In this document: positions 2,024-55,915 of the stretch, in pieces
Layout of the letters: each line of letters opens with the position of its first letter
Position numbering within the stretch: the first letter of the stretch is position 1
IMG/VR virus record: IMGVR_UViG_3300048823_000098
Span: 1-59,846 of that record
DNA from: a virus
Reading direction: 5' to 3' (one strand)
Length of the DNA: 59,846 nt
The notes under the pieces: model-generated
The model's input: the letters and a program-made list of their open reading frames with translations, nothing else
Told to the model about the DNA's origin: nothing
Database searches by the model: none
Translations under genes and position numbers: made by a program

Positions 2024-2212
2024 ATGAGCAAGATCAAACACCCGCAGAGCCGATGGAACAAGGGCAACCGGTTCCCGACAGGTGATGTCTCGGGCGCGTG
2101 GAACCGCAACCTGCAGCATCGTGAGCGTGCGCCTACCGAGAAGGCGTACATCGATAGCTTCGCGGAAGGCGAGCTGTTTAAACACGGGGCAAAGGTGCGG
2201 GCGCGCAAGTGA
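2024..2212 (+). CDS. Hypothetical small basic protein (62 aa)
   Basis: ATG follows GGAGG at 5 nt. Third-position GC is high. The stop overlaps the next start as GTGA. Confidence 0.55.
   Translation: MSKIKHPQSRWNKGNRFPTGDVSGAWNRNLQHRERAPTEKAYIDSFAEGELFKHGAKVRARK
2176..2183. repeat. GTTTAAAC palindrome copy
   Basis: Perfect octamer 26 nt upstream of the GTG start at 2209. Encoded as TTT AAA. Confidence 0.9.
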
Positions 2213-3018
2213 CATCAGCCGCTGAATCATTCGTCATAGCCCTCGGCCGCGCTTCGAGTCGGTCCAGCTATCACCTGCGCGGCCTGCAGCGTGCGGATCG
2301 AGATGATGTGACAGCCACAGCGCTGCTATGGTGCTGGCAGAATCGATCCACCTACACACCGCAGATCTCCCTGGAGGAATGGTTCCTCGGCGCCCTGCGC
2401 AACGCGCGCAGATCCTGGCAGTCGGGGGAGGGCATACGCGCTGAGAACCTGTCGGAGCACATCCCAGTAGCGGACAACGCTCTGGCTCACGCTGAGGCAA
2501 TGAGCGCGGCCCAACAGCTGACACAGACAGCGACACCCGAGCAGTGCGAAGTCGCGATACTGCAGGCCCAGGGACTCACACGAGCCGAGATCATGAAGAA
2601 GCTGCACGTCAGCAAGCGCACGGTCGATCTGGCGCGCAAACACCTCTCCCGACTGCGACGGCTGATGCCGGATTCGAGTGAGGTCATCACCGCGCTGCGC
2701 ACACGTGCATCGGCCGGGAGTAACGAGGGACACAAGATGGCAAAGATTGACCGCGACATCGAGAAGCTGTACAAACCGGAACTGGGCGGCAGCTCGGTGT
2801 TCGCAGACGACTACCGCATGGGTGAGCGAGTGCGAGTGAAGGAAGAGGACATTCGCAACACTGTGGCTATGTGGAGCGGCGGGGTCAACCTGATTTCGGA
2901 TTACGAGGGCGATGCGCCGAACAGGCGGCTCGCGCTGTATACAGTCAACAACGATACGATTACCTGGGTAGCTGAAGCACACGCCACCCTCACGGAGAAT
3001 ATTTATGTCCGACGCTAG
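2209..3018 (+). CDS. ECF-type sigma-70-like factor with a roughly 100-aa C-terminal extension
   Basis: Region-2-like DRDDVTATALLWCWQNRSTY...WFLGALRNARRSW. Region-4 HTH-like LTPEQCEVAILQAQGLTRAEIMKKLHVSKRTVDLARKHLSRLRRL. Confidence 0.6.
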   Translation: MTSAAESFVIALGRASSRSSYHLRGLQRADRDDVTATALLWCWQNRSTYTPQISLEEWFLGALRNARRSWQSGEGIRAENLSEHIPVADNALAHAEAMSAAQQLTQTATPEQCEVAILQAQGLTRAEIMKKLHVSKRTVDLARKHLSRLRRLMPDSSEVITALRTRASAGSNEGHKMAKIDRDIEKLYKPELGGSSVFADDYRMGERVRVKEEDIRNTVAMWSGGVNLISDYEGDAPNRRLALYTVNNDTITWVAEAHATLTENIYVRR

Positions 3019-3334
3019 TAACAACGTGAACAAAGAACAGGAAGCGATGATGATCGCACGCGCCCTGCGCATGGGCCTCGAACGCGATGCCGGCCCTGGC
3101 AACAGCGTGAACAGCACGCAGAACCCGTACATCATCGCGCTACAGGGTCACTTCGATCTGCTGAAGGTCGCGCGCATCGTTGGCGTCGAAGTCGAGAACT
3201 GGCAGACGTATCAGGCCGAGTTGGCAGCGAAGGCTGCGCGCGAAGCCGCGAAGCTGGCGGCGCTCGATGCGCCGCTAGAAGGCCCGCACGATGTGCGCGG
3301 CGATCCGCTGAAAGGCGGAGATTCGCTCGCATGA
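3005..3334 (+). CDS. Hypothetical protein (109 aa)
   Basis: ORF with high GC3 in the co-directional early operon. Its stop overlaps the next ATG (ATGA). Confidence 0.6.
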   Translation: MSDASNNVNKEQEAMMIARALRMGLERDAGPGNSVNSTQNPYIIALQGHFDLLKVARIVGVEVENWQTYQAELAAKAAREAAKLAALDAPLEGPHDVRGDPLKGGDSLA

Positions 3335-3498
3335 GCGGCTGGGTAGAGTCGAGGCCGCAACTTACTGAAGGCGATATCTTCATCGTCGAGGGCGTCCACG
3401 TGAAGCGCCGGTGGTGGTTGCTGTGGGAGTTCTGGCGCCGCGTGATGCCGTTGCAGCGGTTCACCGCTACCAGCGCGGACGTCGATGGCGCGGCATAG
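3331..3498 (+). CDS. Hypothetical small protein (55 aa, Trp/Arg-rich)
   Basis: ATGA overlap with the previous stop. Hand-counted GC3 is about 80 percent. Too short for the ORF track. Confidence 0.5.
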   Translation: MSGWVESRPQLTEGDIFIVEGVHVKRRWWLLWEFWRRVMPLQRFTATSADVDGAA

Positions 3499-3663
3499 GC
3501 GACAGCGGGCACGGCTGCCGTGCGGATGTCAGCCGAACGCGCACAAGTGGACGGATCCGTGTCCCGCTATCGTCCGCATTCAGCGGGCGAAAGCGGAGGC
3601 ACTTGACAAGGTTCTCAGTGGCGGGTTAAGGTCCGTCCCGTAATTAAATCTTTCGGAGCCACC

Positions 3664-3858
3664 ATGAGACTTCAAGTACAGAACCACGGATCCATCTTCC
3701 TGCTCCAGCCCCTCGACGGGCCGGTGCACGACTGGCTGCGCGAGCATGCGCCGCCCGAGGCGCAGACCCTGGGCCGCGCCCTCGCCGTCGAACCCCGCTA
3801 CGTAGAGCTTTGGATCAATCACGCCATAGAGTTCGGCATCGACGTGGAGGTCGTATGA
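3664..3858 (+). CDS. Hypothetical protein (64 aa)
   Basis: GGAG lies 7 nt upstream. GC3 is high. The antisense ORF 3580..3861 is judged a shadow. Confidence 0.6.
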   Translation: MRLQVQNHGSIFLLQPLDGPVHDWLREHAPPEAQTLGRALAVEPRYVELWINHAIEFGIDVEVV

Positions 3859-3956
3859 CATACATCTGGAACTTCGTCGCCTTCATCGTGGGTGTGCCTC
3901 GGTGGCGCGTCCGCGGTTCGGGATGGCATCAATTCGCACGGGAGCCACGCCGATGA
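3855..3956 (+). CDS. Possible 33-aa membrane peptide
   Basis: ATGA overlaps at both ends. Hydrophobic MTYIWNFVAFIVGV. Confidence 0.35.
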   Translation: MTYIWNFVAFIVGVPRWRVRGSGWHQFAREPRR

Positions 3957-4300
3957 GAACGCTAGGAGACCTTGTCATCGACATCTGCGTCATCGCGGCG
4001 GTCATCCTCACCTGCATCGCGTTCTCGGGCTGCGCAGCGCTAGAGCCCGACGTGTCGCTCGACGCGGTGCACGTCTCCCACGCGAGCCAGCACTTCGGAC
4101 CCAATCCCACAAACTACGGCTACGACTCCGCGCAGCTGGCGCTGCATTGGCGCGTCAAGCGATTCGAGCTGACAGTCGCCGACGGCGTCGTACTGGAGCC
4201 CTGTCATCCGGTAGCCGGCAATCCTGAGTGCGGCGCCCTGGTGGGCCCACGCGAGGTGTTCGAGGCCCGCGCATCCTATTTCATCTGGCAGCATCACTGA
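3953..4300 (+). CDS. Putative lipoprotein (candidate superinfection-exclusion-type moron)
   Basis: Signal peptide with lipobox: MRTLGDLVIDICVIAAVILTCIAFSGC. The start could also be 3902 or 3923. Confidence 0.6.
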   Translation: MRTLGDLVIDICVIAAVILTCIAFSGCAALEPDVSLDAVHVSHASQHFGPNPTNYGYDSAQLALHWRVKRFELTVADGVVLEPCHPVAGNPECGALVGPREVFEARASYFIWQHH

Positions 4301-4312
4301 GGTATTCAAGCT

Positions 4313-4705
4313 ATGTGTTTCATGATCAATCCAAAGGCAACAGCGCCGAAGTCGCGATACGCGTACAAGGTGCTCCGCTGGGTAGCCCATCCCATGATCG
4401 GTTACGAACTGCAGTCCGCGCAGCGTCATGGCTTCACCTGGGTCGTCGGCGAAGTTCGCGAGTGCGGTCCCGGCAAGCGTCGAGAGTGGACCGGCATCTC
4501 CAAGCTGGTCAAGGGGAAACGGGTCAAGGTGTACAACGCCAGTGTCGGCATCTACGTGTACCGTACGCTGCAGAAGGCGAAGGAAAACGCCGGTGGCGGG
4601 GTCGTGGTGGCGCGCGTGGTAGTCGATCCGAAGGATTGGCTGTATTCGGGTTTCACCGGGACCGCGACCTACGAGAAAGTGCGCCTGGACAAGGTGTACG
4701 CATGA
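4313..4705 (+). CDS. Hypothetical protein (130 aa)
   Basis: ORF with GAGG upstream. Its stop overlaps the next ATG (ATGA). Confidence 0.6.
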   Translation: MCFMINPKATAPKSRYAYKVLRWVAHPMIGYELQSAQRHGFTWVVGEVRECGPGKRREWTGISKLVKGKRVKVYNASVGIYVYRTLQKAKENAGGGVVVARVVVDPKDWLYSGFTGTATYEKVRLDKVYA

Positions 4706-5003: not shown

Positions 5004-5078
5004 TGGAGGGTAGCTCAGTGGTAGAGCGCGGAACTGTTAATCCCGTGGTCGAAGGTTCGATCCCTTCCCCTCCAGCCA
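5004..5078 (+). tRNA. trnN: tRNA-Asn (anticodon GTT) with encoded CCA
   Basis: Hand-folded cloverleaf. The 7-bp acceptor stem TGGAGGG/CCCTCCA is fully paired. D arm GCTC-AGTGGTA-GAGC. Anticodon loop CTGTTAA. T arm GAAGG-TTCGATC-CCTTC. Discriminator G plus CCA. One A-C mismatch in the anticodon stem. Confidence 0.9.
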
Positions 5079-5098
5079 ACATCGTGCCGGCATCGCTC

Positions 5099-5419
5099 AT
5101 GGATCTGATACTGAGCGACGAGCCATACTTCCCGGGGCGTGACTTCCCCGACCGCGAGAAGTGGCTGGAGCGCCGCTACACGAACCCCTCGAAGCGCGGC
5201 GTCCCGTGCGCGCTGCTGGCGCGTGGTCAAGTCAACAACCGCAAGGCGCGACGATCCGGCCGGTTCAATCCCGATCTGCCGAAGGCGCAGCCGCTGTACG
5301 GCGGCATCAACCGCATGAAGCGCGTGCTGAACACGACCGAGGAAGGTCACAAATCCCTGGTGCAGCAGCGCCAGGACTTCTACAACCGGAGGAGCGATGA
5401 GCAAGCCAGAACGAAGTAA
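5099..5419 (+). CDS. Hypothetical basic protein (106 aa)
   Basis: High GC3 downstream of the tRNA. This is the in-frame continuation of track ORF 4823..5419. The start is taken as the first ATG after the tRNA. Confidence 0.5.
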   Translation: MDLILSDEPYFPGRDFPDREKWLERRYTNPSKRGVPCALLARGQVNNRKARRSGRFNPDLPKAQPLYGGINRMKRVLNTTEEGHKSLVQQRQDFYNRRSDEQARTK

Positions 5420-6974: not shown

Positions 6975-7214
6975 ATGATCATCACCGCTCTCAGCCTCGA
7001 CTTGGTACCCATCGCGGCCAACGTCCACCCGAGCGCCGCCAACGTCGCCCACCAGCGGTCCTACATCAAGACCCATCTCTCCGCCTTCCTTCTGCAGAAC
7101 CCCGATTTTGTGCGGGTCGACGCCACCGAGCAGCCGGCGCCGCACGTCTGCCAGCCGTGGTGCCCGATAAACCACGCCAAGTCCAACGTCATCCAGTTCC
7201 CGGTGCGGGCATGA
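6975..7214 (+). CDS. Hypothetical protein (79 aa)
   Basis: AGGAG lies 6 nt upstream. GC3 is high. ATGA overlap with the next gene. Confidence 0.6.
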   Translation: MIITALSLDLVPIAANVHPSAANVAHQRSYIKTHLSAFLLQNPDFVRVDATEQPAPHVCQPWCPINHAKSNVIQFPVRA

Positions 7215-7798
7215 GCGCCGCCCTCACCCGGGAAGGCTGGCTGACCATCGTCGCCGAGCGGTACCTCTGGCCGCTCATCGACGCGCACGCCGGCATGAAG
7301 CGCCGCGACGCCACGCGATTCGTTCGCTACTCCATCGGATTCCCCAAGGGCTCGCGCGGCGGGCGCAAGTCGGTGGGGCAGTGCTGGAGCCCGACGGCTA
7401 GCGGAGACGGGGCGAGCGAGATCTTCATCTCCCCGATCCTCTCGCCCTTCGACTCCGTCCACACCCTGCTGCATGAGCTGATTCACGCCCAGGTCGGGCT
7501 CCAGCACAAGCACCGTGGTGCGTTTAAACAGTTGGCCCTGGCAGTCGGGCTCACGGGCCAGATGACGGCAACGGTCCCTGGCGAAGCGCTTACCGGCAGT
7601 ATCAACGCGTGGCTGGAGAAGCTGCCGGCCTTCCCAGGCGCGGTGATGAAGGAACGCGAGAACCCGAACAAGCAGACCACTCGCCTGATCAAGTGCCAGT
7701 GCAACGACTGCGGGTACACCGTGCGGACCACCGCGCGATGGCTCGAAGTCGGCGCGCCGCACTGCCCCGAGCACGGCGAAATGGAGGTGATGTCATGA
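7211..7798 (+). CDS. SprT-like zinc metalloprotease domain protein with C-terminal zinc ribbon
   Basis: HELIH (HExxH) motif. C-terminal CQCNDCGY...HCPEHG. Confidence 0.75.
   Translation: MSAALTREGWLTIVAERYLWPLIDAHAGMKRRDATRFVRYSIGFPKGSRGGRKSVGQCWSPTASGDGASEIFISPILSPFDSVHTLLHELIHAQVGLQHKHRGAFKQLALAVGLTGQMTATVPGEALTGSINAWLEKLPAFPGAVMKERENPNKQTTRLIKCQCNDCGYTVRTTARWLEVGAPHCPEHGEMEVMS
7522..7529. repeat. GTTTAAAC palindrome copy
   Basis: Perfect octamer inside the SprT-like gene (TTT AAA codons). Confidence 0.9.
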
Positions 7799-9646: not shown

Positions 9647-9909
9647 CGCAGTACCTGATCAAGTTCTGGACGATGCAGCGGCGGCGCGTCAACGTCGACA
9701 CCATCGCCGAGGCCGAGCAGTACGCTAAGGGTCTCGTCGAACGGCTGGGCGGTGACGCGCTGCTGGTGGCGATCTACGAAGGCGAGGAGCCGCCGAAGCC
9801 GGCGGATCCGCCGCTGGGCAAGCCGCCGAGCGGCCCGACTCCCGGGACTCCAGAGCTGGATCGCTACGCCATCACCCGAGCCTTCGGAGCACAGGCAGAG
9901 GCCGCATGA
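9643..9909 (+). CDS. Hypothetical protein (88 aa)
   Basis: ATGA overlaps at both ends. Confidence 0.55.
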   Translation: MTQYLIKFWTMQRRRVNVDTIAEAEQYAKGLVERLGGDALLVAIYEGEEPPKPADPPLGKPPSGPTPGTPELDRYAITRAFGAQAEAA

Positions 9910-12975: not shown

Positions 12976-15212
12976 TGTTTAAACACTGCTTCATCGATAC
13001 CGAGACCCGGAGCGCGACGCCCATCGACCTGGGCCTCGATAAGTACACGCGCGATGCCGAGTGCATCATCGTCACCTACGCCCTCGACAACGGACCAGTG
13101 AAGATCTGGTTCCCGAAGGAGCGCTCCGCCAGCGTGCACTTCATGCCGGCGGATCTGAAGGCAGCCGTTGACGATGTCGGTTGCGCCTTCGTTGCACACT
13201 ACGCCTCATTCGACCGGCTCATCCTTTTGCGCGCGCTGGGGATACGGTTGCCCGTACTCCCCAGCAATCTTTTTGGCGACGTCTCCCGCTGGCGTTGCAC
13301 GCGCGCCCAGGCCTACTCGCACGGTCTCCCGGGATCCCTGGAGCTGCTAGGACAGGTGCTCGGGCTGCCAGCCGATCAGCAAAAGCTGGTCGACGATGCG
13401 AAGCTGATCCACACTTTCTGCGTCCCCCAGCAGGGGCGATTCATTCAACCCGAGGAGGCTCCCGATGCGTGGGCTCGTTTCTGCAATTACGCTATCAGGG
13501 ATACGGAGTCCCTTCGCGAAATCTTTCGGCGTCTCCCAGCGCACAACTACCGAGACGAGAACTTGGCACTATGGCACCTTGATCAGCTGGCGAACGAGCG
13601 CGGCTTTGGCTTTGATCTTGACTTGGCTCAGGCGGCTGTGGCTTTCCTCGCCGACGCGAAGGTGGCGAGTGACGGTACAATGGCGGAACTTACCGGGGGG
13701 CAAGTGCATGCTGCAACTCAACGTGACCGATTGCTGCGATTCCTCCGTGATCGACTCGACATACCGATAGAAACAATGCGCGCCGCTGAGGTGCGGGAGT
13801 GGTTAGAACATGACGATCTCGACCCAGTGGTACGCCTACTGCTCGAACAAAGACTGGAGGCTAGTAAGTCTTCCGGCTCCAAGTATACGAGAGGCATTAA
13901 CATGCTTGGACCAAATAGCCGTCAGCGCCACACGATCCAGTTTAATGGAGCTGGCCGAACAGGCCGTGACACGGGGCGAGGTTTTCAGCCTCTCAATATG
14001 CCACGACCCGCGCTCAACGTGCGACGCGTCGACGGTAGCATGGAGCTATCGCCTGTAAAGGCGAGCTACATCGATGAAGTCATCCTACCCGGCATTTACA
14101 ACCGTAAGGCACTTTGCAACCCGCTGGTTTACGGGGGCCCACACGAAGCCGCGTCCCTTGCCCTCCGCCATGTTATTGTCGCAGCACCCGGCAATGATCT
14201 TGTGGTTGGCGACTGGAAGAATATCGAATCCGTCCTCACCGCGTGGCACGCGGGCGAGTTCGACGAAGTAGAAGCGTTCCGTGCCGCATTCGCAGATCCC
14301 CACAACAAGGCACTCGATGTTTATCGCAAGCAGTTCAGCGCGTTCTTCGGTACCCCCGTCCTCAACGTCAACGATACCGAGAGGCAGGCTGGCAAGGTAT
14401 CGAAACTTGCTTTCGGCTTTGGTGGCGGCGTGGGCGCTCTGGTTACTATGGCGGCCGTCTACCAGATGGATCTGGAGCCTTTGGCCGACATCGTCCTACC
14501 GCGTGCGACCCCGCTTCAGCGCGAGAAGGCTTATCGCGCGTGGCGTCGCGCGTTCCAGCTGAACGAGGACTACAACCTGGAACCGAAGGTCTATCAGGCC
14601 TGCGATGTGCTCAAGCAGCTGTACCGCACGACCAATTCGAAGATCGATCAGTTCAAGAAAGACGTCGGCAACGCGGTACAGGACTCCATCGAGAACCCGG
14701 GTGCCCCGAAGATTCGCGCCGGGTACTGCTGGATCTGGAGCAACGGCAGTTACCTGATCATCGAGCTGCCCAGCGGGCGGCGCCTGCTATACGCATCGCC
14801 GAAGATCGCGGGCGAGATGCTGGAGGATCCTGATGAGGGCGACCGCAAGGTCAAGGTGGTGTCGTACCTGACCGCGCGCGGCAAGAGCTGGCGCCGTATC
14901 ACCGCGTGGCCTGGGCTGTTCGTCGAGAACATCATGCAGGCGACGGCTAACGACATCCTGCGCGTGGCAAAGCTGCGCGTGCACGCGGACACGATGAGTG
15001 TGCCGGCGATCAAGGCATACCTCGATACGCTGCCCCCTGAGGAGCGCACCGCGATCAACCTGCACATCTACGATGAGTTGTCAGTCGACGTCCCCAAGGG
15101 CTCGTACCCGGCGGAGCGGCTGGCGAAGATGATGACTGCGCCCATCGACTGGGCGCCGGGACTGCCCCTGGCAGTGGATACGTGGACGAACGTGCGATAC
15201 GGCAAGCGATGA
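12975..15212 (+). CDS. Family A DNA polymerase with 3'-5' exonuclease domain
   Basis: Exo I CFIDTETRS. Motif A VVGDWKNIESVLTAW. Motif B RQAGKVSKLAFGFGGG. Motif C HIYDELSVDV. Confidence 0.95.
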   Translation: MFKHCFIDTETRSATPIDLGLDKYTRDAECIIVTYALDNGPVKIWFPKERSASVHFMPADLKAAVDDVGCAFVAHYASFDRLILLRALGIRLPVLPSNLFGDVSRWRCTRAQAYSHGLPGSLELLGQVLGLPADQQKLVDDAKLIHTFCVPQQGRFIQPEEAPDAWARFCNYAIRDTESLREIFRRLPAHNYRDENLALWHLDQLANERGFGFDLDLAQAAVAFLADAKVASDGTMAELTGGQVHAATQRDRLLRFLRDRLDIPIETMRAAEVREWLEHDDLDPVVRLLLEQRLEASKSSGSKYTRGINMLGPNSRQRHTIQFNGAGRTGRDTGRGFQPLNMPRPALNVRRVDGSMELSPVKASYIDEVILPGIYNRKALCNPLVYGGPHEAASLALRHVIVAAPGNDLVVGDWKNIESVLTAWHAGEFDEVEAFRAAFADPHNKALDVYRKQFSAFFGTPVLNVNDTERQAGKVSKLAFGFGGGVGALVTMAAVYQMDLEPLADIVLPRATPLQREKAYRAWRRAFQLNEDYNLEPKVYQACDVLKQLYRTTNSKIDQFKKDVGNAVQDSIENPGAPKIRAGYCWIWSNGSYLIIELPSGRRLLYASPKIAGEMLEDPDEGDRKVKVVSYLTARGKSWRRITAWPGLFVENIMQATANDILRVAKLRVHADTMSVPAIKAYLDTLPPEERTAINLHIYDELSVDVPKGSYPAERLAKMMTAPIDWAPGLPLAVDTWTNVRYGKR
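12977..12984. repeat. GTTTAAAC palindrome copy
   Basis: Perfect octamer formed by the polymerase start, ATG TTT AAA C. Confidence 0.9.
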
Positions 15213-16165: not shown

Positions 16166-17546
16166 ACCGCGCCCGTGGCAGCGGATTGCCACTAAGTTCC
16201 TAATAGAGAACCCCCGGGGCATGCTGGTAGCCGACCCGGGACTCGGTAAAACGAGTATTACGCTCTCTGCGCTCGATTTATTGCGCATGGGGGGCTCGCG
16301 CTTTTTCCCTGCACTTGTGCTGGCGCCCAAGCGTGTTGCCGAGGTGGTGTGGGACGGCGAGGCAGCGAAGTGGGACGCGTTCCAAGACCTAAGCATCATC
16401 AAGGTGCTTGGCGAGCGCGACGCACGGCAGGCGGCGCTGCGCAAGAGCATCGCCGATATGTACATCATCAACTACGACAACGTGCCGTGGTTGGTTGAAC
16501 AATTCAAGGATCGAGAATGGCCCTTCAAGATAGTGATCGCGGACGAGAGCAGCCGGCTGAAGGGATTCCGCATCAAGAAGGGCGGAGTCAGGGCTGCTGC
16601 ACTCTCCATGATCGCCCGCTTTACTGGGCGTTGGTGGAATCTCACGGGCACGCCGACGCCTAACGGACTGCAGGATCTGTGGGGGCAGTTTTGGTTTTTA
16701 GACTATGGCGAGCGTTTGAAGCGAACGTATAGCGCCTATCTGGAGGCGTACTTTCAGGAGAATCGGTACTCCCGCCGCATCGACATACAGAAGGGTTGGG
16801 CGGCCGAAACGGCTATCCACGAAGCGGTGGCGGATCGCATGCTCGCCCTGCGCGCCGAGGATTGGCTGCCCCTGGATAAGCCCCAGGAGATCCCCATCGA
16901 GATCGACCTACCGGCCGACGCGATGGTGAAGTACCGTCAGATGCAGAAGGATCTGTTCCTCGAGATGTCCGACACGGAGATCACCGCCGGCACGGCGGCT
17001 GTGAAGTCCATCAAGCTATTGCAGATCGCTGCCGGCAGTATCTGGGACGAGATGTCGATGTCCCACCAGATTCACGAGGCCCGGGTAGAGGCCCTGGCCG
17101 ACATCGTTGAGGAATCTGGCGGGGAGCCACTGCTTGTGGCATACTGGTGGAAGTTTGACGTACCTCGTATCCTGGCAGCCTTTCCCGAGGCGCGGGTGTA
17201 CCAGGGCCCCAAGGACGAAGCGGATTGGAACGCCGGCAAGATCAAGATGCTGCTGCTGCACGAGCAGAACGCGTTCGGGCTCAACCTCGCGAAGGTATGC
17301 CGCGACGTCGTCTTCTACAGCTACTTCTGGAACGCGGAGCTGTGGCAGCAGATGGTGGAACGAGTCGGACCCGTGCGACAGTTCCAGCTGGGATTGAAAC
17401 GCATCGTGCGCATCTGGACGATCCGAGCGCGCGGTACCATCGACAGCGATGTGATCGAATCCAACTTCGGCAAGATCTCTGTCGAGCAGGCACTTAAGCG
17501 CGCGCGAGCGCGAACGAGGAATCAATGCGAACAGATGACGAACTAA
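16128..17546 (+). CDS. SNF2-family helicase (start uncertain: TTG 16128 or GTG 16146)
   Basis: Motif I DPGLGKTS. Motif II VIADESSRLK. Helicase C-terminal region. Follows VRR-NUC as in related replication modules. Confidence 0.9.
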   Translation: MCWHPSVLPQHFEPRPWQRIATKFLIENPRGMLVADPGLGKTSITLSALDLLRMGGSRFFPALVLAPKRVAEVVWDGEAAKWDAFQDLSIIKVLGERDARQAALRKSIADMYIINYDNVPWLVEQFKDREWPFKIVIADESSRLKGFRIKKGGVRAAALSMIARFTGRWWNLTGTPTPNGLQDLWGQFWFLDYGERLKRTYSAYLEAYFQENRYSRRIDIQKGWAAETAIHEAVADRMLALRAEDWLPLDKPQEIPIEIDLPADAMVKYRQMQKDLFLEMSDTEITAGTAAVKSIKLLQIAAGSIWDEMSMSHQIHEARVEALADIVEESGGEPLLVAYWWKFDVPRILAAFPEARVYQGPKDEADWNAGKIKMLLLHEQNAFGLNLAKVCRDVVFYSYFWNAELWQQMVERVGPVRQFQLGLKRIVRIWTIRARGTIDSDVIESNFGKISVEQALKRARARTRNQCEQMTN

Positions 17547-18649
17547 TCACCGCTCTCAAAGAGAACGGCTGGAACCAACGTGCCGCTGCGCGCTCGCTGA
17601 AGATGAACCGCAGCAGCGTCACGGAGCGCGTCCAGAAGATGCGCAAGAAAGGGATCGAGATCCCCGCGCTGACACCATGCAGAGAACAGGCACCGGCCCC
17701 GGAGGGATACCTTGTCAAAGGCACATCGACTCTTCTCGACTCACAAGGTAATACGGTCGTTCAATGGATTAAAACTCGTGTTGACGACGACAAGTTCAGG
17801 GCAATGGTTGAAGCGGCGTGTCGAGCCGCTGCGGGTAGTGTTCCGCCAATCGGTGTCATTCCACTCCCTCGCGCCACCGCGGCTCATCTTTGCAACCTCT
17901 ACACGATCACAGACGTCCACGTCGGCATGCTTGCCTGGGGGAAAGAATCAGGTGAACCGTGGGATCTCCTGATCGCAGAGCGGTGCCTTACCGAGACGTT
18001 CATCGCGATGATGGACGCTGCACCGAACGCGGTGCAGGGAGTGGTCAATCAGCTAGGCGACTTTCTGCACTTCGACTCGCTGAAGCCGTTAACGCCCGAG
18101 CACGGGCACTTGCTCGATGCGGACAGCCGCTACCAGAAGATCGTCGAAGTGGCGGTGCGGATCCTGATCCGGCTCGTCAACCACGCGCTGACTAAGCACG
18201 AACGCGTACAGGTGTACATGCACGAGGGTAACCACGATCCGGCGGGCTCGGTGTGGCTGCGCGTTCTCTTCGCCCAGCTCTACGCCGATAACCCTCGCGT
18301 GACCGTGGGAGATAGCCCGCTGCCGTACGTGGCCTACCAGTGGGGCAAGACGATGCTCTGCTTCCATCACGGGCACATGGCGAAGAACAATTCGCTGCCG
18401 CTGCTGTTCGCTGCAAGGTTCCCGCAGATGTGGGGGGAGACGACGAAGCGTTACATCCACGTCGGGCACCGGCACCATGTCGATGAGAAGGAACACCCGG
18501 GCATCAAGGTGATCCAGCACTCGACAATCGCGGCGGCCGACGCGTATGCTGCGCGCGGCGGATGGCTCTCAGAGCGCCAAGCAACCTTCATGACCTATCA
18601 CTTGGAATCTGGTGAAATCGCACGCGGTATCTTCATACCGCAGGAGTAA
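17525..18649 (+). CDS. HTH domain fused to a calcineurin-like metallophosphoesterase
   Basis: N-terminal NGWNQRAAARSLKMNRSSVTERV (Fis-type HTH). Phosphoesterase motifs HEGNHD, GHM and GHRHH. Confidence 0.75.
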   Translation: MRTDDELITALKENGWNQRAAARSLKMNRSSVTERVQKMRKKGIEIPALTPCREQAPAPEGYLVKGTSTLLDSQGNTVVQWIKTRVDDDKFRAMVEAACRAAAGSVPPIGVIPLPRATAAHLCNLYTITDVHVGMLAWGKESGEPWDLLIAERCLTETFIAMMDAAPNAVQGVVNQLGDFLHFDSLKPLTPEHGHLLDADSRYQKIVEVAVRILIRLVNHALTKHERVQVYMHEGNHDPAGSVWLRVLFAQLYADNPRVTVGDSPLPYVAYQWGKTMLCFHHGHMAKNNSLPLLFAARFPQMWGETTKRYIHVGHRHHVDEKEHPGIKVIQHSTIAAADAYAARGGWLSERQATFMTYHLESGEIARGIFIPQE

Positions 18650-35684: not shown

Positions 35685-35803
35685 AGCGTCCTCTGTAATA
35701 TGTGCCGTCTCTCCGAGCTGTCACGACTTCCTTTAGCCTTACGGCACCGTGGTCGTTCACGAAGTGTGCACTTGGGTGAGGCAAGCGCACGAACCCTTCA
35801 GGC

Positions 35804-41352: not shown

Positions 41353-42084
41353 TTAGCCGGACCAATCCGGCGGATTCCAATGAAACCACGGCATGCCGTC
41401 GGGGCCATCCGCGGGCTTAACTCTTGCCACCGCGCGCCCGCTCATTACGTTGTAACGCAGCGCGTCCATTAGGTGGTCGTTCTCTTTGATGATCTCGCCC
41501 TTGTCGTTGCGGCGATACAGGCGCATCTCGTTGCGCGTGTTTGTCATCGTGTTGAATATCTTCAGCTGGCCTATCGCCAGCATGTGCCACACCTTCGTGA
41601 GACCCGCTACAACCGCGTTGTCCGCCAGTTCTACCGTCAGTCCCAGGTCAGCGTAAACCTCAGTCAGCTTCTTGCCGTCGTGTCCTCGCGCGCCTTTGGC
41701 CGCCGGATCAATCACGCCAGCCATCCACTTACCCTTGGCGTTGATCGCCGCTGCATGCGACGAGGGCTCGCGGACACCGACGTAGTATTCGTCGTAGGCG
41801 AACACGCTGCCATCGTCCGGGTTCCACGCCAGCCAGATGACCGCAGTGCGATTCCAGCCCGGGTCAATCGAATACGACCGAGGCCAGTGATCCGGCAGCG
41901 TGAATGGCGCGCACAGGATCTCCGTCTCCGGTATCGGGTAGATCGCGCCCGCTCCCGGCGATGGCGTGCCGTACATACGCGCGTCTCGCTGCCAGGGCGG
42001 GATACCCGAGAGTGCGGCCTCTTTCGATTCCGCAGACAGGTGGGGGACATCGTCCCAACCAACCATCACGCATGCCTTAGCCAT
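41353..42084 (-). CDS. terL: Terminase large subunit, C-terminal nuclease half (separate ORF)
   Basis: WDDVPHLSAESKEAAL...PPWQRDARMYGTPSPGAGAIYP aligns with P22 gp2 YDAEHYTDEQKEQII...PEHEREARARGIPTMGSGRIF. C-terminal NDHLMDALRY. Confidence 0.85.
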   Translation of the reverse strand: MAKACVMVGWDDVPHLSAESKEAALSGIPPWQRDARMYGTPSPGAGAIYPIPETEILCAPFTLPDHWPRSYSIDPGWNRTAVIWLAWNPDDGSVFAYDEYYVGVREPSSHAAAINAKGKWMAGVIDPAAKGARGHDGKKLTEVYADLGLTVELADNAVVAGLTKVWHMLAIGQLKIFNTMTNTRNEMRLYRRNDKGEIIKENDHLMDALRYNVMSGRAVARVKPADGPDGMPWFHWNPPDWSG

Positions 42085-42841
42085 TGGTCTGCTCGTCGAT
42101 AGGCACCGGGCTGAGGTGAGGCATGAATGCCAACATCAGCTTGGTGACGCCCATCAGTGGAGTCTCTGTTAGTAACAACATGCCGTTGCGGGTCATGAGT
42201 CTCAGGATACATTCCGCATAGATCTCAAGGTCCGGCTCCTCGTCTAAGTGAATGCCGTCGTTAGCCGTGCCTTGGAATGCTATGCGGCCCTGATCGTAAC
42301 TTTTAAGCTGCAACGTCGACACGCCGCCAGTCGGCACGTGCTTCACAAATACTGTTTCGTACGCGTCCGCGAGACCGTGCTTCACTGTCGTACGCAGGAT
42401 CAGATCGCCAGGAATCATTCCCGTGCCGTGAGCGGCGGCGTCACCCGGCTTGCCGCAATACACCGACTGCAGAATGTCCCGGGTGTTCTTACCGGTGTCG
42501 GTAGCAGCCCACCACTCTACGGGGCGCTTGAAACGATAGCCTTCCCACCAATCCGGGTACAGACCCGTGAGGTGAAGCGTATCCTCGAAAGTTCCGGTGA
42601 CTGTTTTTCCTGTGCGATTGCCGCCGAACATAGCGCGTTCCTGATACCTCGGACGACCCGTACCGTCGTCCTTTCCGAGTCGGAAGAATTCCATCGACTT
42701 AGGGTAGAGGTGCCGCGCAAACGGTCCTGTATCACTAAAGTAGGTCCAGATTCGATTGCGGCTTGCTCGGCGGTGCTTCGCTTCCATCAGTTCGAGAAGC
42801 TTCAAGCGCTCGTTGCGGCTTAAGTTCAGTAAACTCGGCAT
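42077..42841 (-). CDS. terL: Terminase large subunit, N-terminal ATPase half (separate ORF; the track offers GTG 42916 as an alternative start)
   Basis: Walker A FGGNRTGKT. Walker B GIHLDEEP. Coupling motif LTETPLMG. N-terminus LLNLSRNERLKLLELMEAK parallels P22 gp2. GC3 switches to this frame near 42841. Confidence 0.85.
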   Translation of the reverse strand: MPSLLNLSRNERLKLLELMEAKHRRASRNRIWTYFSDTGPFARHLYPKSMEFFRLGKDDGTGRPRYQERAMFGGNRTGKTVTGTFEDTLHLTGLYPDWWEGYRFKRPVEWWAATDTGKNTRDILQSVYCGKPGDAAAHGTGMIPGDLILRTTVKHGLADAYETVFVKHVPTGGVSTLQLKSYDQGRIAFQGTANDGIHLDEEPDLEIYAECILRLMTRNGMLLLTETPLMGVTKLMLAFMPHLSPVPIDEQTNG

Positions 42842-46346: not shown

Positions 46347-46832
46347 TTAGACCGTGCCTGAGAACAGGTTCTGCAGCACCACCGTGGTCGGCGACGTGAC
46401 GGAAACCTGATAGACGCGGCTGGTCGTGATGGCGACCGTTGCCGTGCCGTTGATGGTGACGCCCGCGCCGCCGGCCAACGTGATCGCGCCCGAGGCGGAG
46501 TTGTTATTCACAACGACCAGCAGGAACGTCAGGTTGAACAGGTTCGGGACACCCGGGGGTGGCTGCACGCCGGCACCGAAGCCAGCGAGCGAAGCCGCGT
46601 ATGCCGTAGCAACGGCGCTCTGCAGGCGCGAGATGATGTTCACGGCCGTATCGGTCGTGACAGTGTCCGCACCAGCGTCGCCGCTGATCGCCAGCGTATT
46701 CACCTGCGCGCCGGCCAGGACCGATGCGGAAGCAGTGAAGTTGACGCCGCTAGCGTTGGCGTTGTACTGCGAAGCGGGTAGGACCGCAATCGCGTTATAG
46801 AAATCGTCTGAGAAGACGCCTCGAAAAGCCAT
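46347..46832 (-). CDS. Hypothetical structural protein (161 aa)
   Basis: ORF preceded by a terminator and by GTTTAAAC abutting its ATG. Confidence 0.65.
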   Translation of the reverse strand: MAFRGVFSDDFYNAIAVLPASQYNANASGVNFTASASVLAGAQVNTLAISGDAGADTVTTDTAVNIISRLQSAVATAYAASLAGFGAGVQPPPGVPNLFNLTFLLVVVNNNSASGAITLAGGAGVTINGTATVAITTSRVYQVSVTSPTTVVLQNLFSGTV

Positions 46833-51512: not shown

Positions 51513-51514
51513 GT

Positions 51515-51856
51515 TTAAATCACCGCGCTCGGCTTCTTGGGCTGATCAGGATGCCCAGGCTCGGAGCGAACCGGCGGTGCCGGGTCCTCGGTCTTGGGTT
51601 CCGATGTCTTCGGTGTCACTGAGGCCGGGGGAGCCGCCACACCGCATATAACCGCAGGGATGTATCCATCCGCGAGTTGTTTGGCCGCATCCGGCAGATC
51701 TTTCAGGATCTCAGGCAGTCGGTTGTTCATCTCGCCGCACACGCGCGCTTCCTTGACCACGCCGCCGAGTTCCATCGACTGCACTTCCATCGTGGTATCT
51801 TTTGCGCCAGGAGCGCTCAGCAGATGCAACCAAGCAACGATGACGAAAATGTTCAT
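51515..51856 (-). CDS. Secreted Pro-rich protein (113 aa)
   Basis: Signal-like MNIFVIVAWLHLLSAPGA. ATGA overlap with the upstream gene. Confidence 0.55.
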   Translation of the reverse strand: MNIFVIVAWLHLLSAPGAKDTTMEVQSMELGGVVKEARVCGEMNNRLPEILKDLPDAAKQLADGYIPAVICGVAAPPASVTPKTSEPKTEDPAPPVRSEPGHPDQPKKPSAVI

Positions 51857-52362: not shown

Positions 52363-52370
52363 GTTTAAAC
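52363..52370. repeat. GTTTAAAC palindrome copy
   Basis: Perfect octamer, intergenic. Confidence 0.9.
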
Positions 52371-53141: not shown

Positions 53142-53150
53142 GTGAATTCC

Positions 53151-53558
53151 TTACGCGATGGTCGACGCGATGTTCGCGTTGCCGTAATTGGGGATCGACA
53201 CGATGGGTACCGACACGCCGGTCAGAACCGGAGCGCCAGTGTCAGGAGTCGCGCCGCTGCCCGCTGCGCCGCCTCCGACGCATTCGAGCCAGTTCGCGTG
53301 CTGAGACACAACTTCGACCGAGGCCGGCGGCACCGGAGCGGGGGCGTTGGGTCCGCCATCACCAAAGGCGAGCCCGTCAGCGCGCACGTTGGTCGCGATG
53401 CCGGATACACCCGGGATCGTTCCAGGGGGGACTCCGAACGGCGCGACCCCGCCGGCACCGATGGATGCCAGCGCAAGGATCGAGCGACCGTTGACGGAGT
53501 TGTTTAAATCATTCGTGCAGAACGCGAACCCGGGAAGGGGCGAGGAGAAGATCGTCAT
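53151..53558 (-). CDS. PGF-C-ND family paralog B (135 aa)
   Basis: MTIFSSPLPGFAFCTNDLNNSVNGRSILALASI. TAATG coupling to paralog A. Confidence 0.65.
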   Translation of the reverse strand: MTIFSSPLPGFAFCTNDLNNSVNGRSILALASIGAGGVAPFGVPPGTIPGVSGIATNVRADGLAFGDGGPNAPAPVPPASVEVVSQHANWLECVGGGAAGSGATPDTGAPVLTGVSVPIVSIPNYGNANIASTIA

Positions 53559-53845: not shown

Positions 53846-53867
53846 GAGGATGCCTCAGTGGGTGCGG

Positions 53868-54203
53868 TCAATGTCGTCGCCAGCGCTCCAGCGTCCTCAT
53901 CACCTGGGGCTGTGCCAGCAGTGTCTCGTCTGCGTACCAGAAAATAACGCCGTCCACGCGGATCGGCAAGGGTGCCATCTTGCGGCAGATCAGTCGACCC
54001 AGCTCGCCGTGGGTACAGCGGTAGAGGATCGTCAGCTGCTCTCGCGAGAAGAAGTCCGCAGCGCCCCCGAGGGGCAGCTGCACGCGACGCGGGGAAGGAA
54101 CGGGGGTCGGTGGAGCTTGTGCGCGCTCCTGTTGGGGGGTTCGCGGGGTGACCGGACTTGCGTCCGGGGTGACCGATGTCCCCTTCTCCGACCCGGCGTT
54201 CAC
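53868..54203 (-). CDS. Small DNA-binding (excisionase/AlpA-type HTH-like) protein (about 111 aa, GTG start)
   Basis: GTGA overlap with the upstream stop. C-terminal FFSREQLTILYRCTHGELGRLICRKMAPLPIRVDGVIFWYADE. Confidence 0.5.
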   Translation of the reverse strand: MNAGSEKGTSVTPDASPVTPRTPQQERAQAPPTPVPSPRRVQLPLGGAADFFSREQLTILYRCTHGELGRLICRKMAPLPIRVDGVIFWYADETLLAQPQVMRTLERWRRH

Positions 54204-55160: not shown

Positions 55161-55180
55161 GATTGTGGTACGCTTGTGAG

Positions 55181-55450
55181 ATGGATAACTACACATACGC
55201 ACGAGACGTGGCGTTGGCCGTCTACAAGAACCGCAGGACCGAGGCACGCATTCGCTACAGGCGCGCCCTGCTAGCTGCCAGGAAGGCGCGCGACCGTGAG
55301 CTGGTGATAGCTGAGGATTGGGCCGAGAAGCGCCCACAGCTGCGCGTTGACGCGATGGAGGCGTTCAAGCGCAAGGCCTCAGCTCTGAGGCACCAGATGA
55401 GCCGTACGCTTCAGTGGGCAGCCAAGGACTACTCGCGTTTGGTCAGATAG
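55181..55450 (+). CDS. Hypothetical basic helical protein (89 aa; the track start TTG 55163 is possible)
   Basis: Coding-like GC3. Weak RBS. Confidence 0.55.
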   Translation: MDNYTYARDVALAVYKNRRTEARIRYRRALLAARKARDRELVIAEDWAEKRPQLRVDAMEAFKRKASALRHQMSRTLQWAAKDYSRLVR

Positions 55451-55490
55451 CCTGGGCCCAGGTGGCAGGCACCAACAAAAAGGCCCGCTG

Positions 55491-55513
55491 AAAAGGGGCG
55501 CACGAGGCGCCCC
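55491..55513 (-). terminator. Rho-independent terminator of the leftward gene 55537..55833
   Basis: On the minus strand, GGGGCGC-ctcgt-GCGCCCC followed by TTTT. Confidence 0.65.
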
Positions 55514-55536
55514 AGGTGTCAGCTTCGATGATCAGA

Positions 55537-55833
55537 TCAGGCGGGCTGCACCGCGAACCCACCCACTAGGGTGGATTCCGCGGCGTCCCAGCGATATGCC
55601 TGGGTGGCCTTGGCAGCGGTGTCGGCCGAGCTGTGCCAAGTCACACCGTATCCGTGGTCCTTCACCCAGCGCTGGCCGACTCCCGAGGGGTGGAATCCGG
55701 GGTCGCTGGCTTGGCTGCGTACCAGGGCACGCATGGCGCGGGGTGAGGCCCACACCACGATGTGGGTGTAGGCGCTCTCGGTGTTGCGGGTGAAGACACC
55801 GACCGGGGTGGTGACTGAGAGGCTCTTCTTCAT
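55537..55833 (-). CDS. Hypothetical protein (98 aa), a stand-alone leftward transcription unit within the early arm
   Basis: Has its own sigma70-like promoter, AGGAG SD and terminator. High GC3. Confidence 0.7.
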   Translation of the reverse strand: MKKSLSVTTPVGVFTRNTESAYTHIVVWASPRAMRALVRSQASDPGFHPSGVGQRWVKDHGYGVTWHSSADTAAKATQAYRWDAAESTLVGGFAVQPA

Positions 55834-55872
55834 GTCCGTGCTCCTGGGTCAGTTACTAGTTACTAGGCCTCC

Positions 55873-55900
55873 ATTATCTACACCCCAGGGCCCGTGTCAA
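55873..55900 (-). promoter_or_regulatory. Sigma70-like promoter (leftward): TTGACA-N16-GATAAT
   Basis: Reverse complement of tgtcaa at 55895..55900 and of attatc at 55873..55878. Confidence 0.6.
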
Positions 55901-55907
55901 CAAGTTT

Positions 55908-55915
55908 GTTTAAAC
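55908..55915. repeat. GTTTAAAC palindrome copy (core of the 12-bp palindrome TTGTTTAAACAA)
   Basis: Lies midway between the two divergent -35 boxes. Confidence 0.9.

Follow-up and report, generated by a model that had tools for sequence, protein, structure and literature searches.

A short palindrome maintained by selection in two related phages is a possible dispersed operator

The stoperators of the Cluster A mycobacteriophages, known from L5 gp71 and its relatives, have a motif that is lineage-specific and co-varies with phage clade (PMC6550527, PMC9283540). The IncP-1 plasmid RK2 likewise carries global operators, OA for KorA (GTTTAGCTAAAC) and OB for KorB (TTTAGCCGCTAAA) (PMC2680271, PMC11790492). 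Here we compare these systems with the palindrome GTTTAAAC of a P22-like environmental phage. The window, meaning the whole stretch of 59,846 nucleotides analysed, is a complete circular genome (59,719 bp, 61% G+C), and the identical sequence was assembled independently from at least seven samples.

A sequence-only reading of this DNA had reported 13 TTTAAA hexamers, nine of them within GTTTAAAC, had put the chance expectation at about 0.3 octamers, and had proposed counting against dinucleotide- and codon-preserving shuffles. All 13 coordinates are correct, and the nine perfect copies lie far above the 0.31 expected from base composition and the 0.19 found in 100 dinucleotide-preserving shuffles (largest 2); the same shuffles gave 2.2 TTTAAA hexamers (largest 6). 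Despite the 61% G+C, GTTTAAAC is the commonest 8-bp palindrome of the window. When synonymous codons were shuffled so that every protein and the codon usage were preserved, the six perfect intragenic copies dropped to about 0.25, and the total averaged 3.25, including the three intergenic sites left untouched. Each TTTAAA is at most one outer-base mismatch away from GTTTAAAC, and all four window variants are mismatched at an outer base only, on either side (GTTTAAAT, ATTTAAAC). At the window's base composition the octamer carries a calculated 17.6 bits or so, which is enough for a transcription-factor site.

One close relative, whose portal is 90% identical, has six perfect sites (0.12 expected) and five near sites in 44 kb; its variants are also mismatched at outer bases, except for one doubly mismatched TTTAAA site. 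Given the seven or more independent assemblies, and given that GTTTAAAC differences in the alignment of the two phages are substitutions rather than insertions, we conclude that the enrichment is not an artefact. The motif is absent from about 60 relatives that are more distant (63-75%) and from the nearest outgroup. Positional conservation, which had also been proposed as a check, is partial: five positions are kept between the window and the close relative, one of them in the divergent early region and one before an HTH gene, and the rest turn over. The 13 sites are as follows.

2176..2183: GTTTAAAC within TGTTTAAACA, inside the 3' end of a 62-aa ORF; the sigma/LuxR-like HTH gene 2209..3018 starts with its GTG 25 nt downstream; position kept in the relative (L077:12917), flanks diverged
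7522..7529: GTTTAAAC in a 195-aa HExxH/zinc-ribbon gene, 7211..7798 (TTT AAA); the relative has GTTTAAAA at the same position (L077:19715)
12977..12984: GTTTAAAC as DNA polymerase codons 1-3 (ATG TTT AAA C), overlapping the stop of the upstream ORF; the DNA polymerase N-termini of L001-L003 differ and are without the site, and the close relative's sequence there was not recovered
20835..20842: GTTTAAAC among the final codons of a 498-aa tail gene (GGT TTA AAC, G L N); the ATG at 20799 follows 36 nt downstream
27659..27666: variant GTTTAAAG, 3'-terminal in a 724-aa gene; the ATG at 27636 follows about 23 nt downstream
34371..34378: GTTTAAAC in a 523-aa Phage_stabilise gene (CGT TTA AAC); the relative has CGG CTG AAC, the same amino acids
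40152..40159: variant ATTTAAAC (GTTTAAAT on the coding strand) in the portal gene (AGT TTA AAT); the relative's portal has AGC CTG AAT, the same amino acids
44578..44585: GTTTAAAC in codons 5-7 of a GroES-like gene (GAG TTT AAA CAA); the relative has GAA TTT GCG CAA
46833..46840: GTTTAAAC, intergenic, occupying the whole gap from the Shine-Dalgarno GAGG to the ATG of a 161-aa gene, 46347..46832; kept in the relative (L064:4344, GAGGTTTAAACGATG)
51513..51520: variant GTTTAAAT where two genes meet; its TAA serves as the stop of a 113-aa gene, 51515..51856
52363..52370: GTTTAAAC between genes; the ATG at 52343 follows 20 nt downstream
53502..53509: variant GTTTAAAT in codons 17-19 of a 135-aa gene, 53151..53558; identical variant at the same position in the relative (L077:1261)
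55908..55915: GTTTAAAC as the core of a perfect 12-bp palindrome, TTGTTTAAACAA

Within genes the motif imposes rare codons, as the sequence-only reading had it: TTA makes up 2.1% of Leu codons, TTT 19% of Phe and AAA 22% of Lys, while TTT-AAA encodes 5 of 27 Phe-Lys pairs and TTA-AAY 6 of 52 Leu-Asn pairs, with 1.1 expected in each case. Intragenic sites occupy both stop-free frames, and the third frame (GTT TAA) appears only at 51513, where the TAA is a real stop. At three sites the orthologous codons of the two phages differ solely by synonymous changes, in support of the earlier proposal that selection is on nucleic acid and not on protein. The example then offered, the fibre motif AGLNAGSF, does read GCA GGT TTA AAC GCC GGT AGT TTT, but a pattern search found none of the paralogous modules with which it had been contrasted. 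Late-gene sites have been gained and lost between the two phages by synonymous changes to rare codons (TTA, TTT-AAA), and intragenic sites in general turn over, whereas intergenic and regulatory ones are conserved. Given this synonymous turnover alongside conserved positions elsewhere, we conclude that selection acts on double-stranded DNA, on both copy number and position; the dozen or so copies of GTTTAAAC in the two phages were made and are kept by selection on the DNA itself.

The association with gene starts is weaker than had been claimed. By our gene calls, eight of the 13 sites, rather than nine, have their centres no more than 50 nt from a start codon, with the ninth at 52 nt. This zone covers 14% of the genome (binomial P = 1e-4), but gene boundaries are AT-rich, 36% of other six-A/T runs also lie near starts, and against that background the excess is marginal. 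The window sites are more evenly spaced than random points (largest gap 7.9 kb, P = 0.002; coefficient of variation, P = 0.004), and in the relative evenness is not significant (P = 0.09). An extended form, GTTTAAACA, stands at seven of the nine perfect window sites as reported, but the relative has G as the next base at four of its six. Read along transcription, a purine follows the motif at 22 of the 26 oriented sites of the two phages, and no further column is conserved within 45 nt on either side.

The clearest regulatory placement is at 55908, where the following features surround the site.

55873..55900, minus strand: leftward sigma-70-like promoter, TTGACA-16-GATAAT, 11 of 12 matches
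55926..55955, plus strand: rightward promoter candidate, TTGACA-18-TGCAAT, an inferred feature that fails the position-2 rule of the promoter scan
55823..56004: inverted repeat of about 180 bp, with arms 55823-55867 and 55961-56004

The site sits between back-to-back TTGACA boxes, as the sequence-only reading had described, separated by 7 nt from the leftward -35 box and by 10 nt from the rightward one. It is also central in the inverted repeat, through which the two divergent genes share their leader, ribosome-binding site and first codons and whose centre (about 55914) is 2 bp off that of the motif. The relative too carries GTTTAAAC in its divergent early region (L077:4378), though the flanking genes differ; there it falls downstream of the leftward -10 box, at about +8 to +15, whereas the window site is upstream of the leftward and the rightward -35 box alike. 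Strong sigma-70-type promoters occur in the early control region only, and the sigma-70-like promoters coincide with no motif site other than 55908.

Among the options that the sequence-only reading offered, an operator of a phage regulon fits best. We tentatively favor GTTTAAAC as a multi-copy operator for a putative clade-specific dimeric DNA-binding protein, a reading that we regard as possible while stopping short of calling it probable. It draws on the enrichment in two genomes (9 versus 0.19, 6 versus 0.12), the exact dyad symmetry with outer-base-only variants on either side, the information content of the octamer, the synonymous rare-codon origin of sites in every possible frame, the early-promoter-region site in both phages, the conserved site 25 nt upstream of an HTH gene with a lineage-matched recognition helix, regulatory and intergenic conservation set against intragenic turnover, the even spacing in the window, and the precedents for dispersed operators (stoperators, PMC6550527, PMC9283540; KorA GTTTAGCTAAAC, PMC2680271). 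Under such an arrangement GTTTAAAC, with TGTTTAAACA as its optimum and TTGTTTAAACAA at 55908, would be a double-stranded DNA site for a sequence-specific symmetric dimer, encoded by the two-phage clade or, less likely, by the host. The primary sites would be those at control points with conserved positions, namely the divergent early promoter spacer, the region upstream of the sigma/LuxR-like HTH gene and the ribosome-binding region of the 161-aa gene. Another eight or so would run through the long operons every 5-7 kb or so, at gene junctions or inside genes where synonymous changes permit; selection would maintain their number, and they may be auxiliary, serving as roadblocks or in looping or loading. 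The outcome could be genome-wide repression or temporal control, working like L5 stoperators, the dispersed C1 operators of P1 and the KorA/KorB operators of RK2.

Two products are candidate binders.

2209..3018, plus strand: 269 aa, with an ECF-sigma region-2-like N-terminus and a region-4/LuxR-GerE-type HTH at residues ~100-150
53868..54203, minus strand: 111 aa, 86% identical in the relative

The first appears the most plausible, and would bind through its LuxR/sigma-4-type HTH; the motif-bearing relative keeps the recognition helix of this HTH, and the outgroup that lacks the motif has a different one. Its matches are all weak (Pfam HTH_23, GerE and Sigma70_ECF; PHROG sigma factor and DNA-binding protein; PDB EL222, ComA and NarL). 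The second gave no HMM or PDB match; by eye its C-terminal half resembles a winged helix of excisionase/HTH_17 type, and its AF2 model is a low-confidence helix-helix-strand-strand-helix (pLDDT 59). Several observations count against an operator. Scans of about 75 products found no repressor, ribbon-helix-helix, ParB or KorA family; the position of the early site relative to promoters differs between the two phages; the serine recombinase has only 270 aa and the temperate lifestyle is putative; evenness is not significant in the relative; and ordinary regulators do not normally select intragenic sites. Eight contiguous base pairs without conserved flanks are also short for an HTH dimer, and look more like a restriction/modification site or a ribbon-helix-helix box.

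HIP1 (GCGATCGC) is the cyanobacterial highly iterated palindrome, a GC-rich, methyltransferase-linked property of host chromosomes that occurs about once per kb. We consider it unlikely, although it is the alternative that survives best, that GTTTAAAC is similarly the target of a DNA methyltransferase or of restriction-modification-associated repair, of host or phage, with copies piling up through biased repair or methylation-linked selection and not through regulator binding. Such a process would suit an exact, flankless palindrome that arises synonymously in all frames and turns over fast, and restriction to one lineage may equal restriction to one host. Deamination of a methylated terminal C would yield the transition GTTTAAAT/ATTTAAAC that most variants show, but neutral decay predicts a transition majority as well. 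Restriction pressure on the phage family is clear (CTCGAG, 3 versus 26 expected), and phages normally lose the sites of host enzymes; yet GTTTAAAC, the recognition sequence of the type II enzymes PmeI/MssI, shows enrichment where a restriction site should show avoidance, an opposition that the sequence-only reading had rightly pointed out. Moreover, Pfam and PHROG scans found no methyltransferase or Vsr-like gene in the phage, and neither the early-region site in both phages nor the conserved regulatory positions nor the even spacing is predicted.

The even spacing in the window would suit sites of phage DNA metabolism, used for priming or initiation by the 856-aa Prim-Pol/PriCT-2/helicase or for specific nicking or processing, which we judge quite unlikely. 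A palindrome would give the same signal on both strands at regular intervals, density rather than position seems to be selected inside genes, the primase shares 74% identity with that of the motif-bearing relative and no more than 52% with that of any other phage found, and the Prim-Pol of phage NrS-1 offers a precedent in its recognition of an 8-nt template sequence, TTTGGTTA (PMC8718748). However, primase sites normally have 3-4 nt and are frequent, sites some 5 kb apart are too few for priming of the lagging strand, the relative lacks significant evenness, no nickase gene was recognised in the phage, and the divergent-promoter site and the conserved positions adjoining starts are left unexplained.

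An mRNA signal GUUUAAAC, whether a cleavage or processing site, a translational operator or an unstructured AU-rich spacer by ribosome-binding sites, is very unlikely. The frame matches a -1 frameshift heptamer, U_UUA_AAC, in four genes. In favor of such a signal, eight or nine of the 13 sites are near start codons, the 46833 motif is the exact Shine-Dalgarno-to-AUG spacer in both phages, a purine usually follows, and the relative's early-region site lies in a 5' UTR. Yet other AT-rich hexamers are enriched near starts too, the purine may reflect codon structure alone, the distance to Shine-Dalgarno or AUG varies, and several sites lie deep in genes and turn over. RNA has no need of a palindrome, whereas here both outer bases are constrained and decay is symmetric, and 55908, the best palindrome, lies in a spacer between divergent promoters that should not be transcribed; the earlier suggestion of an RNA-processing signal is weakened accordingly.

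Least probable of all is a single-element promoter that the phage's sigma-like protein would read, comparable to T4 late TATAAATA or phiEco32 TAATGTATA: the phage does encode such a protein, four sites lie 20-36 nt upstream of start codons and strong sigma-70-type promoters are confined to the early control region, but a palindrome would fire both ways, transcripts from sites that abut an ATG (46833) or fill codons 1-3 (12977) would begin intragenically, and deep intragenic sites turn over between close relatives. Since the sites are accompanied by neither a -10 or -35 partner nor a conserved flank and stand at no fixed distance from start codons, the promoter element suggested earlier is, like an RNA signal, unlikely.

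Among known systems, the T4 late and phiEco32 gp36 promoters are asymmetric elements set at a constant distance from transcription starts. They share with GTTTAAAC an AT-rich single element of 8-9 bp repeated upstream of many genes and a sigma-like factor of the phage's own, whereas GTTTAAAC is symmetric, often abuts or enters coding starts and is inconsistently spaced. Unlike usual restriction sites, the PmeI/MssI sequence is enriched 30-50 fold, while CTCGAG is depleted in the phage family. Like HIP1, GTTTAAAC is a perfect 8-bp palindrome, far over-represented, that directs codon choice in coding DNA in all frames; unlike HIP1, it is known from two phage genomes only, and the phage scans found no methyltransferase. 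RK2 OA has the same outer bases, GTTTA...TAAAC, and the KorA/KorB sites are likewise AT-rich palindromic operators that recur around a replicon of GC-rich hosts, their placement relative to promoters varying (PMC2680271, PMC11790492). The half-sites of GTTTAAAC overlap, however, and it is 4 bp shorter than the 12-bp OA, so its binding geometry cannot equal that of KorA; no KorA, KorB or ParB homologue was detected among the roughly 75 phage products. Stoperators are 13-14 bp long, asymmetric, oriented with transcription, monomer-bound and present at about 24-36 per genome, whereas here there is an 8-bp perfect palindrome in about 13 copies, with a putative repressor and putative lysogeny. As with stoperators, many copies of a short site are spread genome-wide in short intergenic gaps and at gene ends, and one copy lies at the early lytic promoter (PMC6550527, PMC9283540).

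We found the enrichment of the octamer GTTTAAAC to be real and statistically very strong, and it is now joined by evolutionary evidence of selection. Thirteen TTTAAA hexamers, nine of them perfect GTTTAAAC, had been reported in the sequence-only reading, and our recount agreed exactly in number and position. Dinucleotide-preserving shuffles gave 0.19 octamers (maximum 2 in 100 shuffles) and 2.2 TTTAAA, against the nine and 13 observed; base composition gives 0.31 octamers, close to the earlier estimate of about 0.3. No other 8-bp palindrome is as common in the window. One-mismatch variants are overall at chance (seven seen versus ~6.8 expected), and four of the seven are outer-base changes, so the TTTAAA core is strict and the outer G and C slightly less so. 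The TTTAAA sites that depart from the perfect form in the window are as follows.
27659, GTTTAAAG
40152, ATTTAAAC
51513 and 53502, GTTTAAAT

When synonymous codons were shuffled within each gene, leaving proteins and codon usage unchanged, a mean of 0.25 of the six perfect intragenic sites was left. The codons at the sites are indeed rare, as had been claimed: TTA makes up 2.1% of leucine codons in the genome. Of 27 Phe-Lys pairs, 5 are written TTT-AAA, and of 52 Leu-Asn pairs, 6 are written TTA-AAY, with ~1.1 expected for each. Intragenic sites occupy both stop-free frames, and in the third-frame cases the TAA is a genuine stop codon (51513 and, in the close relative described below, position 2911 of contig piece L064). 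Chance and artefact are excluded as causes of the enrichment.

The genome in which these sites lie is complete. Nucleotides 1-127 of the window are identical to 59720-59846, and an independently assembled Logan contig (L066) that is 100% identical spans the joined ends. It follows that the window represents one complete genome of 59,719 bp, either circular or circularly permuted. An 856-aa Prim-Pol gene crosses the junction. Its G+C content is 61%, and its sequence was also recovered from several JGI, ENA and Logan samples. The phage is P22-like. Its minus strand encodes a P22-type portal and coat protein, a scaffold protein, terminase, a GroES-like gene and lysozyme, and its plus-strand replication module comprises a Prim-Pol/PriCT-2 primase-helicase, a DUF2800 nuclease, an Enc34-type single-strand-binding protein, a family A DNA polymerase, an SNF2 helicase and an SbcD-like exonuclease. 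GenBank phages gave no nucleotide match to the window and no match to its 892-aa protein, and the DNA polymerase shares only 35% identity with its BPP-1 counterpart. Further features of the genome are listed here.
5004-5078, tRNA-Asn with anticodon GTT, the sole RNA gene found
6110-6922, serine recombinase of 270 aa with Resolvase and Recombinase domains, without the zinc-ribbon or coiled-coil part
41353..42084, minus strand, Terminase_6C ORF of the large terminase (243 aa)
42077..42631, minus strand, Terminase_6N ORF of the large terminase (184 aa)

An Rfam search of the window returned nothing beyond the one tRNA, which is overlapped by an ORF call (5018..5419) whose 5' end is probably too long. 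The serine recombinase is 263-279 aa long in relatives. The two terminase ORFs overlap by 8 nt; the gene is also split in an outgroup (L078) and, as two separate ORFs with a 10-nt gap, in the close relative (L063/L064), so the split is not a sequencing error and may represent a frameshift or a genuine two-subunit arrangement. The beginning of the SNF2-type helicase gene carries a near-identical direct repeat of ~90 bp (16040-16130 and 16227-16317, copies 187 bp apart).

Conservation among relatives, proposed earlier as a check on the motif, proved to depend on distance. Some 60 IMG/VR contigs that share the head module (portal 63-73% identical) hold two GTTTAAAC in ~770 kb, with TTTAAA at or below expectation. 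In the 35 kb recovered from the nearest outgroup (portal 72%), TTTAAA is missing altogether and no other 8-bp palindrome is enriched. A protein search yielded one close relative, with a 90% identical portal on a 62,572-bp Logan contig (SRR29078143_17482), of which 44,020 bp were recovered at 72-82% nucleotide identity to the window. This relative keeps the enrichment: it has eleven TTTAAA, six of them perfect GTTTAAAC (0.12 expected) and the others ATTTAAAC or GTTTAAAT (three), GTTTAAAA and ATTTAAAA. Given that the relative is enriched and the distant family members are not, the motif is a property of a young two-phage clade and not of the family. We rejected the idea that each relative has its own palindrome, since the CGGCAATGCC signal of one distant contig (L001) is an 18-bp tandem coding repeat and the nearest outgroup lacks an enriched palindrome.

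The motif's reach may extend beyond the two-phage clade. A more distant phage, L085, whose HTH protein is 43% identical, has one perfect GTTTAAAC (9807-9814) at a gene junction, followed by a Shine-Dalgarno sequence and ATG, along with two TTTAAA variants in 13.7 kb; the TAA in the perfect site is apparently the upstream gene's stop codon. Scans of metagenomes and viruses with the HTH protein gave only distant homologues (33-43% identical), L085 among them, and one genome-collection scan gave only a bog MAG contig with a 64% identical portal and no motif.

Five positions are shared by the window and the close relative.
46833, filling the Shine-Dalgarno-to-ATG spacer of a 161-aa gene in both phages
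2176, 25 nt 5' of the HTH gene, the octamer intact in the relative and its flanks diverged
53502, imperfect GTTTAAAT in both phages
7522, GTTTAAAA in the relative
A fifth site in the divergent early control region, kept despite different flanking genes

The late genes show turnover: the relative lacks the window's sites 44578, 40152 and 34371, and has four sites that the window lacks. At three of these seven the amino acids are the same and the phages differ by two or three synonymous changes only.
Terminase, CGG TTT AAA CGC versus CGT TTC AAG CGC
Portal, AGT TTA AAT versus AGC CTG AAT
523-aa gene, CGT TTA AAC versus CGG CTG AAC

This synonymous turnover is direct evidence for selection on the DNA word itself, and at the places concerned the presence of a site counts for more than its exact location.

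In distant relatives, octamers of the AATTTTTA or ATTTTTCA type precede several late genes by 19-33 nt and are followed directly by a Shine-Dalgarno sequence (5470, 9461 and 15546 in L033; 4175 and 15515 in L057; 3344 in L059). At the corresponding position, upstream of 35684 (about 35690-35700), the window has ACATATTACAGAGG, with ATATTA and not GTTTAAAC. We rejected these AT-rich octamers as counterparts of the motif; they are a different, positionally conserved element, perhaps one that acts in late promoters or in translation across the family. The XhoI-type word CTCGAG is strongly avoided (3 versus 26 expected in the window, 0 in the relative's 44 kb, 47 versus 314 expected in 60 related contigs) except in a few contigs (L001, L002, L005 and L006); this avoidance suggests that the hosts carry a restriction system for CTCGAG.

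Across 59.7 kb the 13 sites are distributed more evenly than randomly placed points would be, the widest gap being 7.9 kb (P = 0.002 for the largest gap, P = 0.004 for the coefficient of variation); the relative has 11 sites in 44 kb, and there the test of even spacing was not significant (P = 0.09). A link to gene starts had been proposed, and it held in part. For eight of the 13 sites the centre is no more than 50 nt from a start codon, and such positions make up 14% of the genome (P = 1e-4). However, 36% of other runs of six A/T are equally close, and it may just be that gene boundaries tolerate an AT-rich word. Distances to the start codon have no fixed value, ranging from overlap with it up to 700 nt.

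We aligned 26 oriented sites from both phages and found that information was confined to the eight core columns, plus a weak +1 purine preference along transcription; within 45 nt on either side there was no second conserved element of the -10 or -35 kind. An extension to GTTTAAACA, also claimed earlier, is true of the window, where TGTTTAAACA is present three times, but in the relative a G follows four of the six perfect sites. A sigma-70 promoter scan coincided with a site only at 55908, and promoter-like matches were no commoner than in shuffled sequence. The suggestion that the motif is a promoter element is disfavoured by its palindromic form, its variable distance from starts and the lack of a second conserved column.

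Strong sigma-70-type promoters occur in the window only in the control region near 55.9 kb. Here site 55908 does lie between back-to-back TTGACA boxes, 7 and 10 nt away, as the core of a perfect 12-mer, TTGTTTAAACAA. It is also at the centre of an inverted repeat, through which both divergent genes share a leader, ribosome-binding site and first codons. Both phages have a site in their divergent early region. That of the window has a -35 box on either side; that of the relative comes after the -10 box, in the leader just 3' of a TTGACA-16-TATAAA promoter. The divergent flanking genes encode 98 and 69 aa in the window, and 166 aa and a UvrD-like helicase in the relative.

Nearby, a GC-rich hairpin (GGGGCGC-ACGAG-GCGCCCC) and then a minus-strand T-run (55495-55513), kept in the relative, lie between the convergent genes 55181..55450 (plus) and 55537..55833 (minus); the leftward early transcript probably ends after one gene. 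The start of the late operon is separated from the early control region by ~0.8 kb of non-coding DNA (54400-55180). Two blocks of it, CAGGGGGTTTTAGGGATTCT and GGCTAAGCCnTTGATTCTAAAGG, are kept in the relative; it also contains an AT-rich iteron-like segment (54900-55080) and two identical 16-bp direct repeats, GCCAGTCTATTGGCGC, at 54789 and 54820. This DNA has no Rfam match and may serve as an origin or attP site, or may encode a non-coding RNA.

Taken together, the strict dyad symmetry of the octamer, the symmetric decay of its variants and the position of its best copy (55908) in an untranscribed spacer between divergent promoters point to recognition as double-stranded DNA by a symmetric protein. 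The octamer carries ~17.6 bits in the window's base composition, which is ample for a regulator. A few conserved control-point sites combined with selected, scattered auxiliary sites, as in three known systems, favour a clade-specific global regulator that would bind dispersed sites, probably repressing, or insulating, transcription along the two long gene arms. We tentatively infer that the sites are of the dispersed operator type.

One competitor to such a regulator is a HIP1-like or methylation-linked palindrome. The octamer has the HIP1-type trait of being an over-represented, perfect 8-bp palindrome made by codon choice in several frames, and this account would fit the exactness of the word, its absent flanks, the synonymous turnover and the GTTTAAAT variants. 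However, the scanned phage proteins yielded no methyltransferase domain, and the control-region sites are left unexplained. Sites of priming, nicking or processing would agree with the spacing and turnover, and the Prim-Pol of phage NrS-1, with its 8-nt site, offers a precedent (PMC8718748), although the account is otherwise unsupported. More broadly, the octamer could be a phage-borne iterated palindrome, a genome-wide DNA-level signal with no described phage counterpart, kept for number and spread along the chromosome and not for single positions. We give this a substantial, though minority, chance; such a signal might serve in self-marking, priming, processing or defence and would be read on both strands, with the control-point copies secondary. 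An RNA signal or single-element promoter is disfavoured by the dyad symmetry and the untranscribed best copy, and a -1 frameshift site (U_UUA_AAC) was rejected because that frame is found in only four of nine intragenic sites and sites turn over synonymously between the relatives.

For the regulator that we favour, the best candidate binder is the product of 2209..3018, a sigma factor- or LuxR-like protein with a LuxR/sigma-4-type HTH (weak Pfam, PHROG and PDB matches) and a conserved site just 5' of its gene. Its recognition helix is SKRTVDLARKHL in the window, DKRTIELARKHL in the relative and SKREYDDVMRRI in the motif-less outgroup. Another candidate, 111 aa long and encoded by 53868..54203, shares 86% identity with its counterpart in the relative and has a putative winged-helix pattern in its C-terminal half, suggested by a reading of its sequence and a low-confidence model (single-sequence AF2, pLDDT 59, too poor for a fold search). 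The 98- and 69-aa proteins flanking 55908 are unlikely binders because they have no homologue in the relative's recovered 44 kb, and the motif is absent from contigs that encode a homologue 57% identical to the 98-aa protein. We also rejected the HTH_8/metallophosphatase protein (17525..18649) as a site-specific nuclease, since it is a full-length member of the widespread phage "DNA repair exonuclease" family. No repressor family was detected among the phage proteins scanned, and none of them matched the KorA or TrfB family; the two HTH candidates are both weakly supported.

The octamer is a clean natural case of a short viral DNA word under strong and recent selection: the number of sites is the same in two genomes of ~80% identity, and their positions have been exchanged via synonymous switches to rare codons. 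As operators, the sites would form a genome-wide control circuit built on an unusually compact 8-bp palindrome, and would provide a tractable pair of protein and site that is orthogonal in GC-rich hosts. Otherwise, they would be the phage equivalent of the iterated palindromes that are unexplained in bacterial chromosomes, and each copy in this 60-kb genome could be mutated and tested.

Literature searches on the octamer found nothing relevant, and our comparison is with systems of similar layout. The dispersed C1 operators of P1 have the same arrangement of control-point and scattered sites. Like the window phage, Cluster A mycobacteriophages carry many copies of one site, the stoperator, over the whole genome (PMC6550527, PMC9283540), although stoperators are asymmetric and have one orientation to transcription, whereas the window site is a perfect palindrome with a weak +1 purine preference. 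The KorA and KorB operators of RK2 likewise combine conserved control-point sites with scattered auxiliary ones (PMC2680271, PMC11790492). KorA binds OA, the 12-bp palindrome GTTTAGCTAAAC, and the half-sites of our octamer are alike but 4 bp closer together (PMC2680271).
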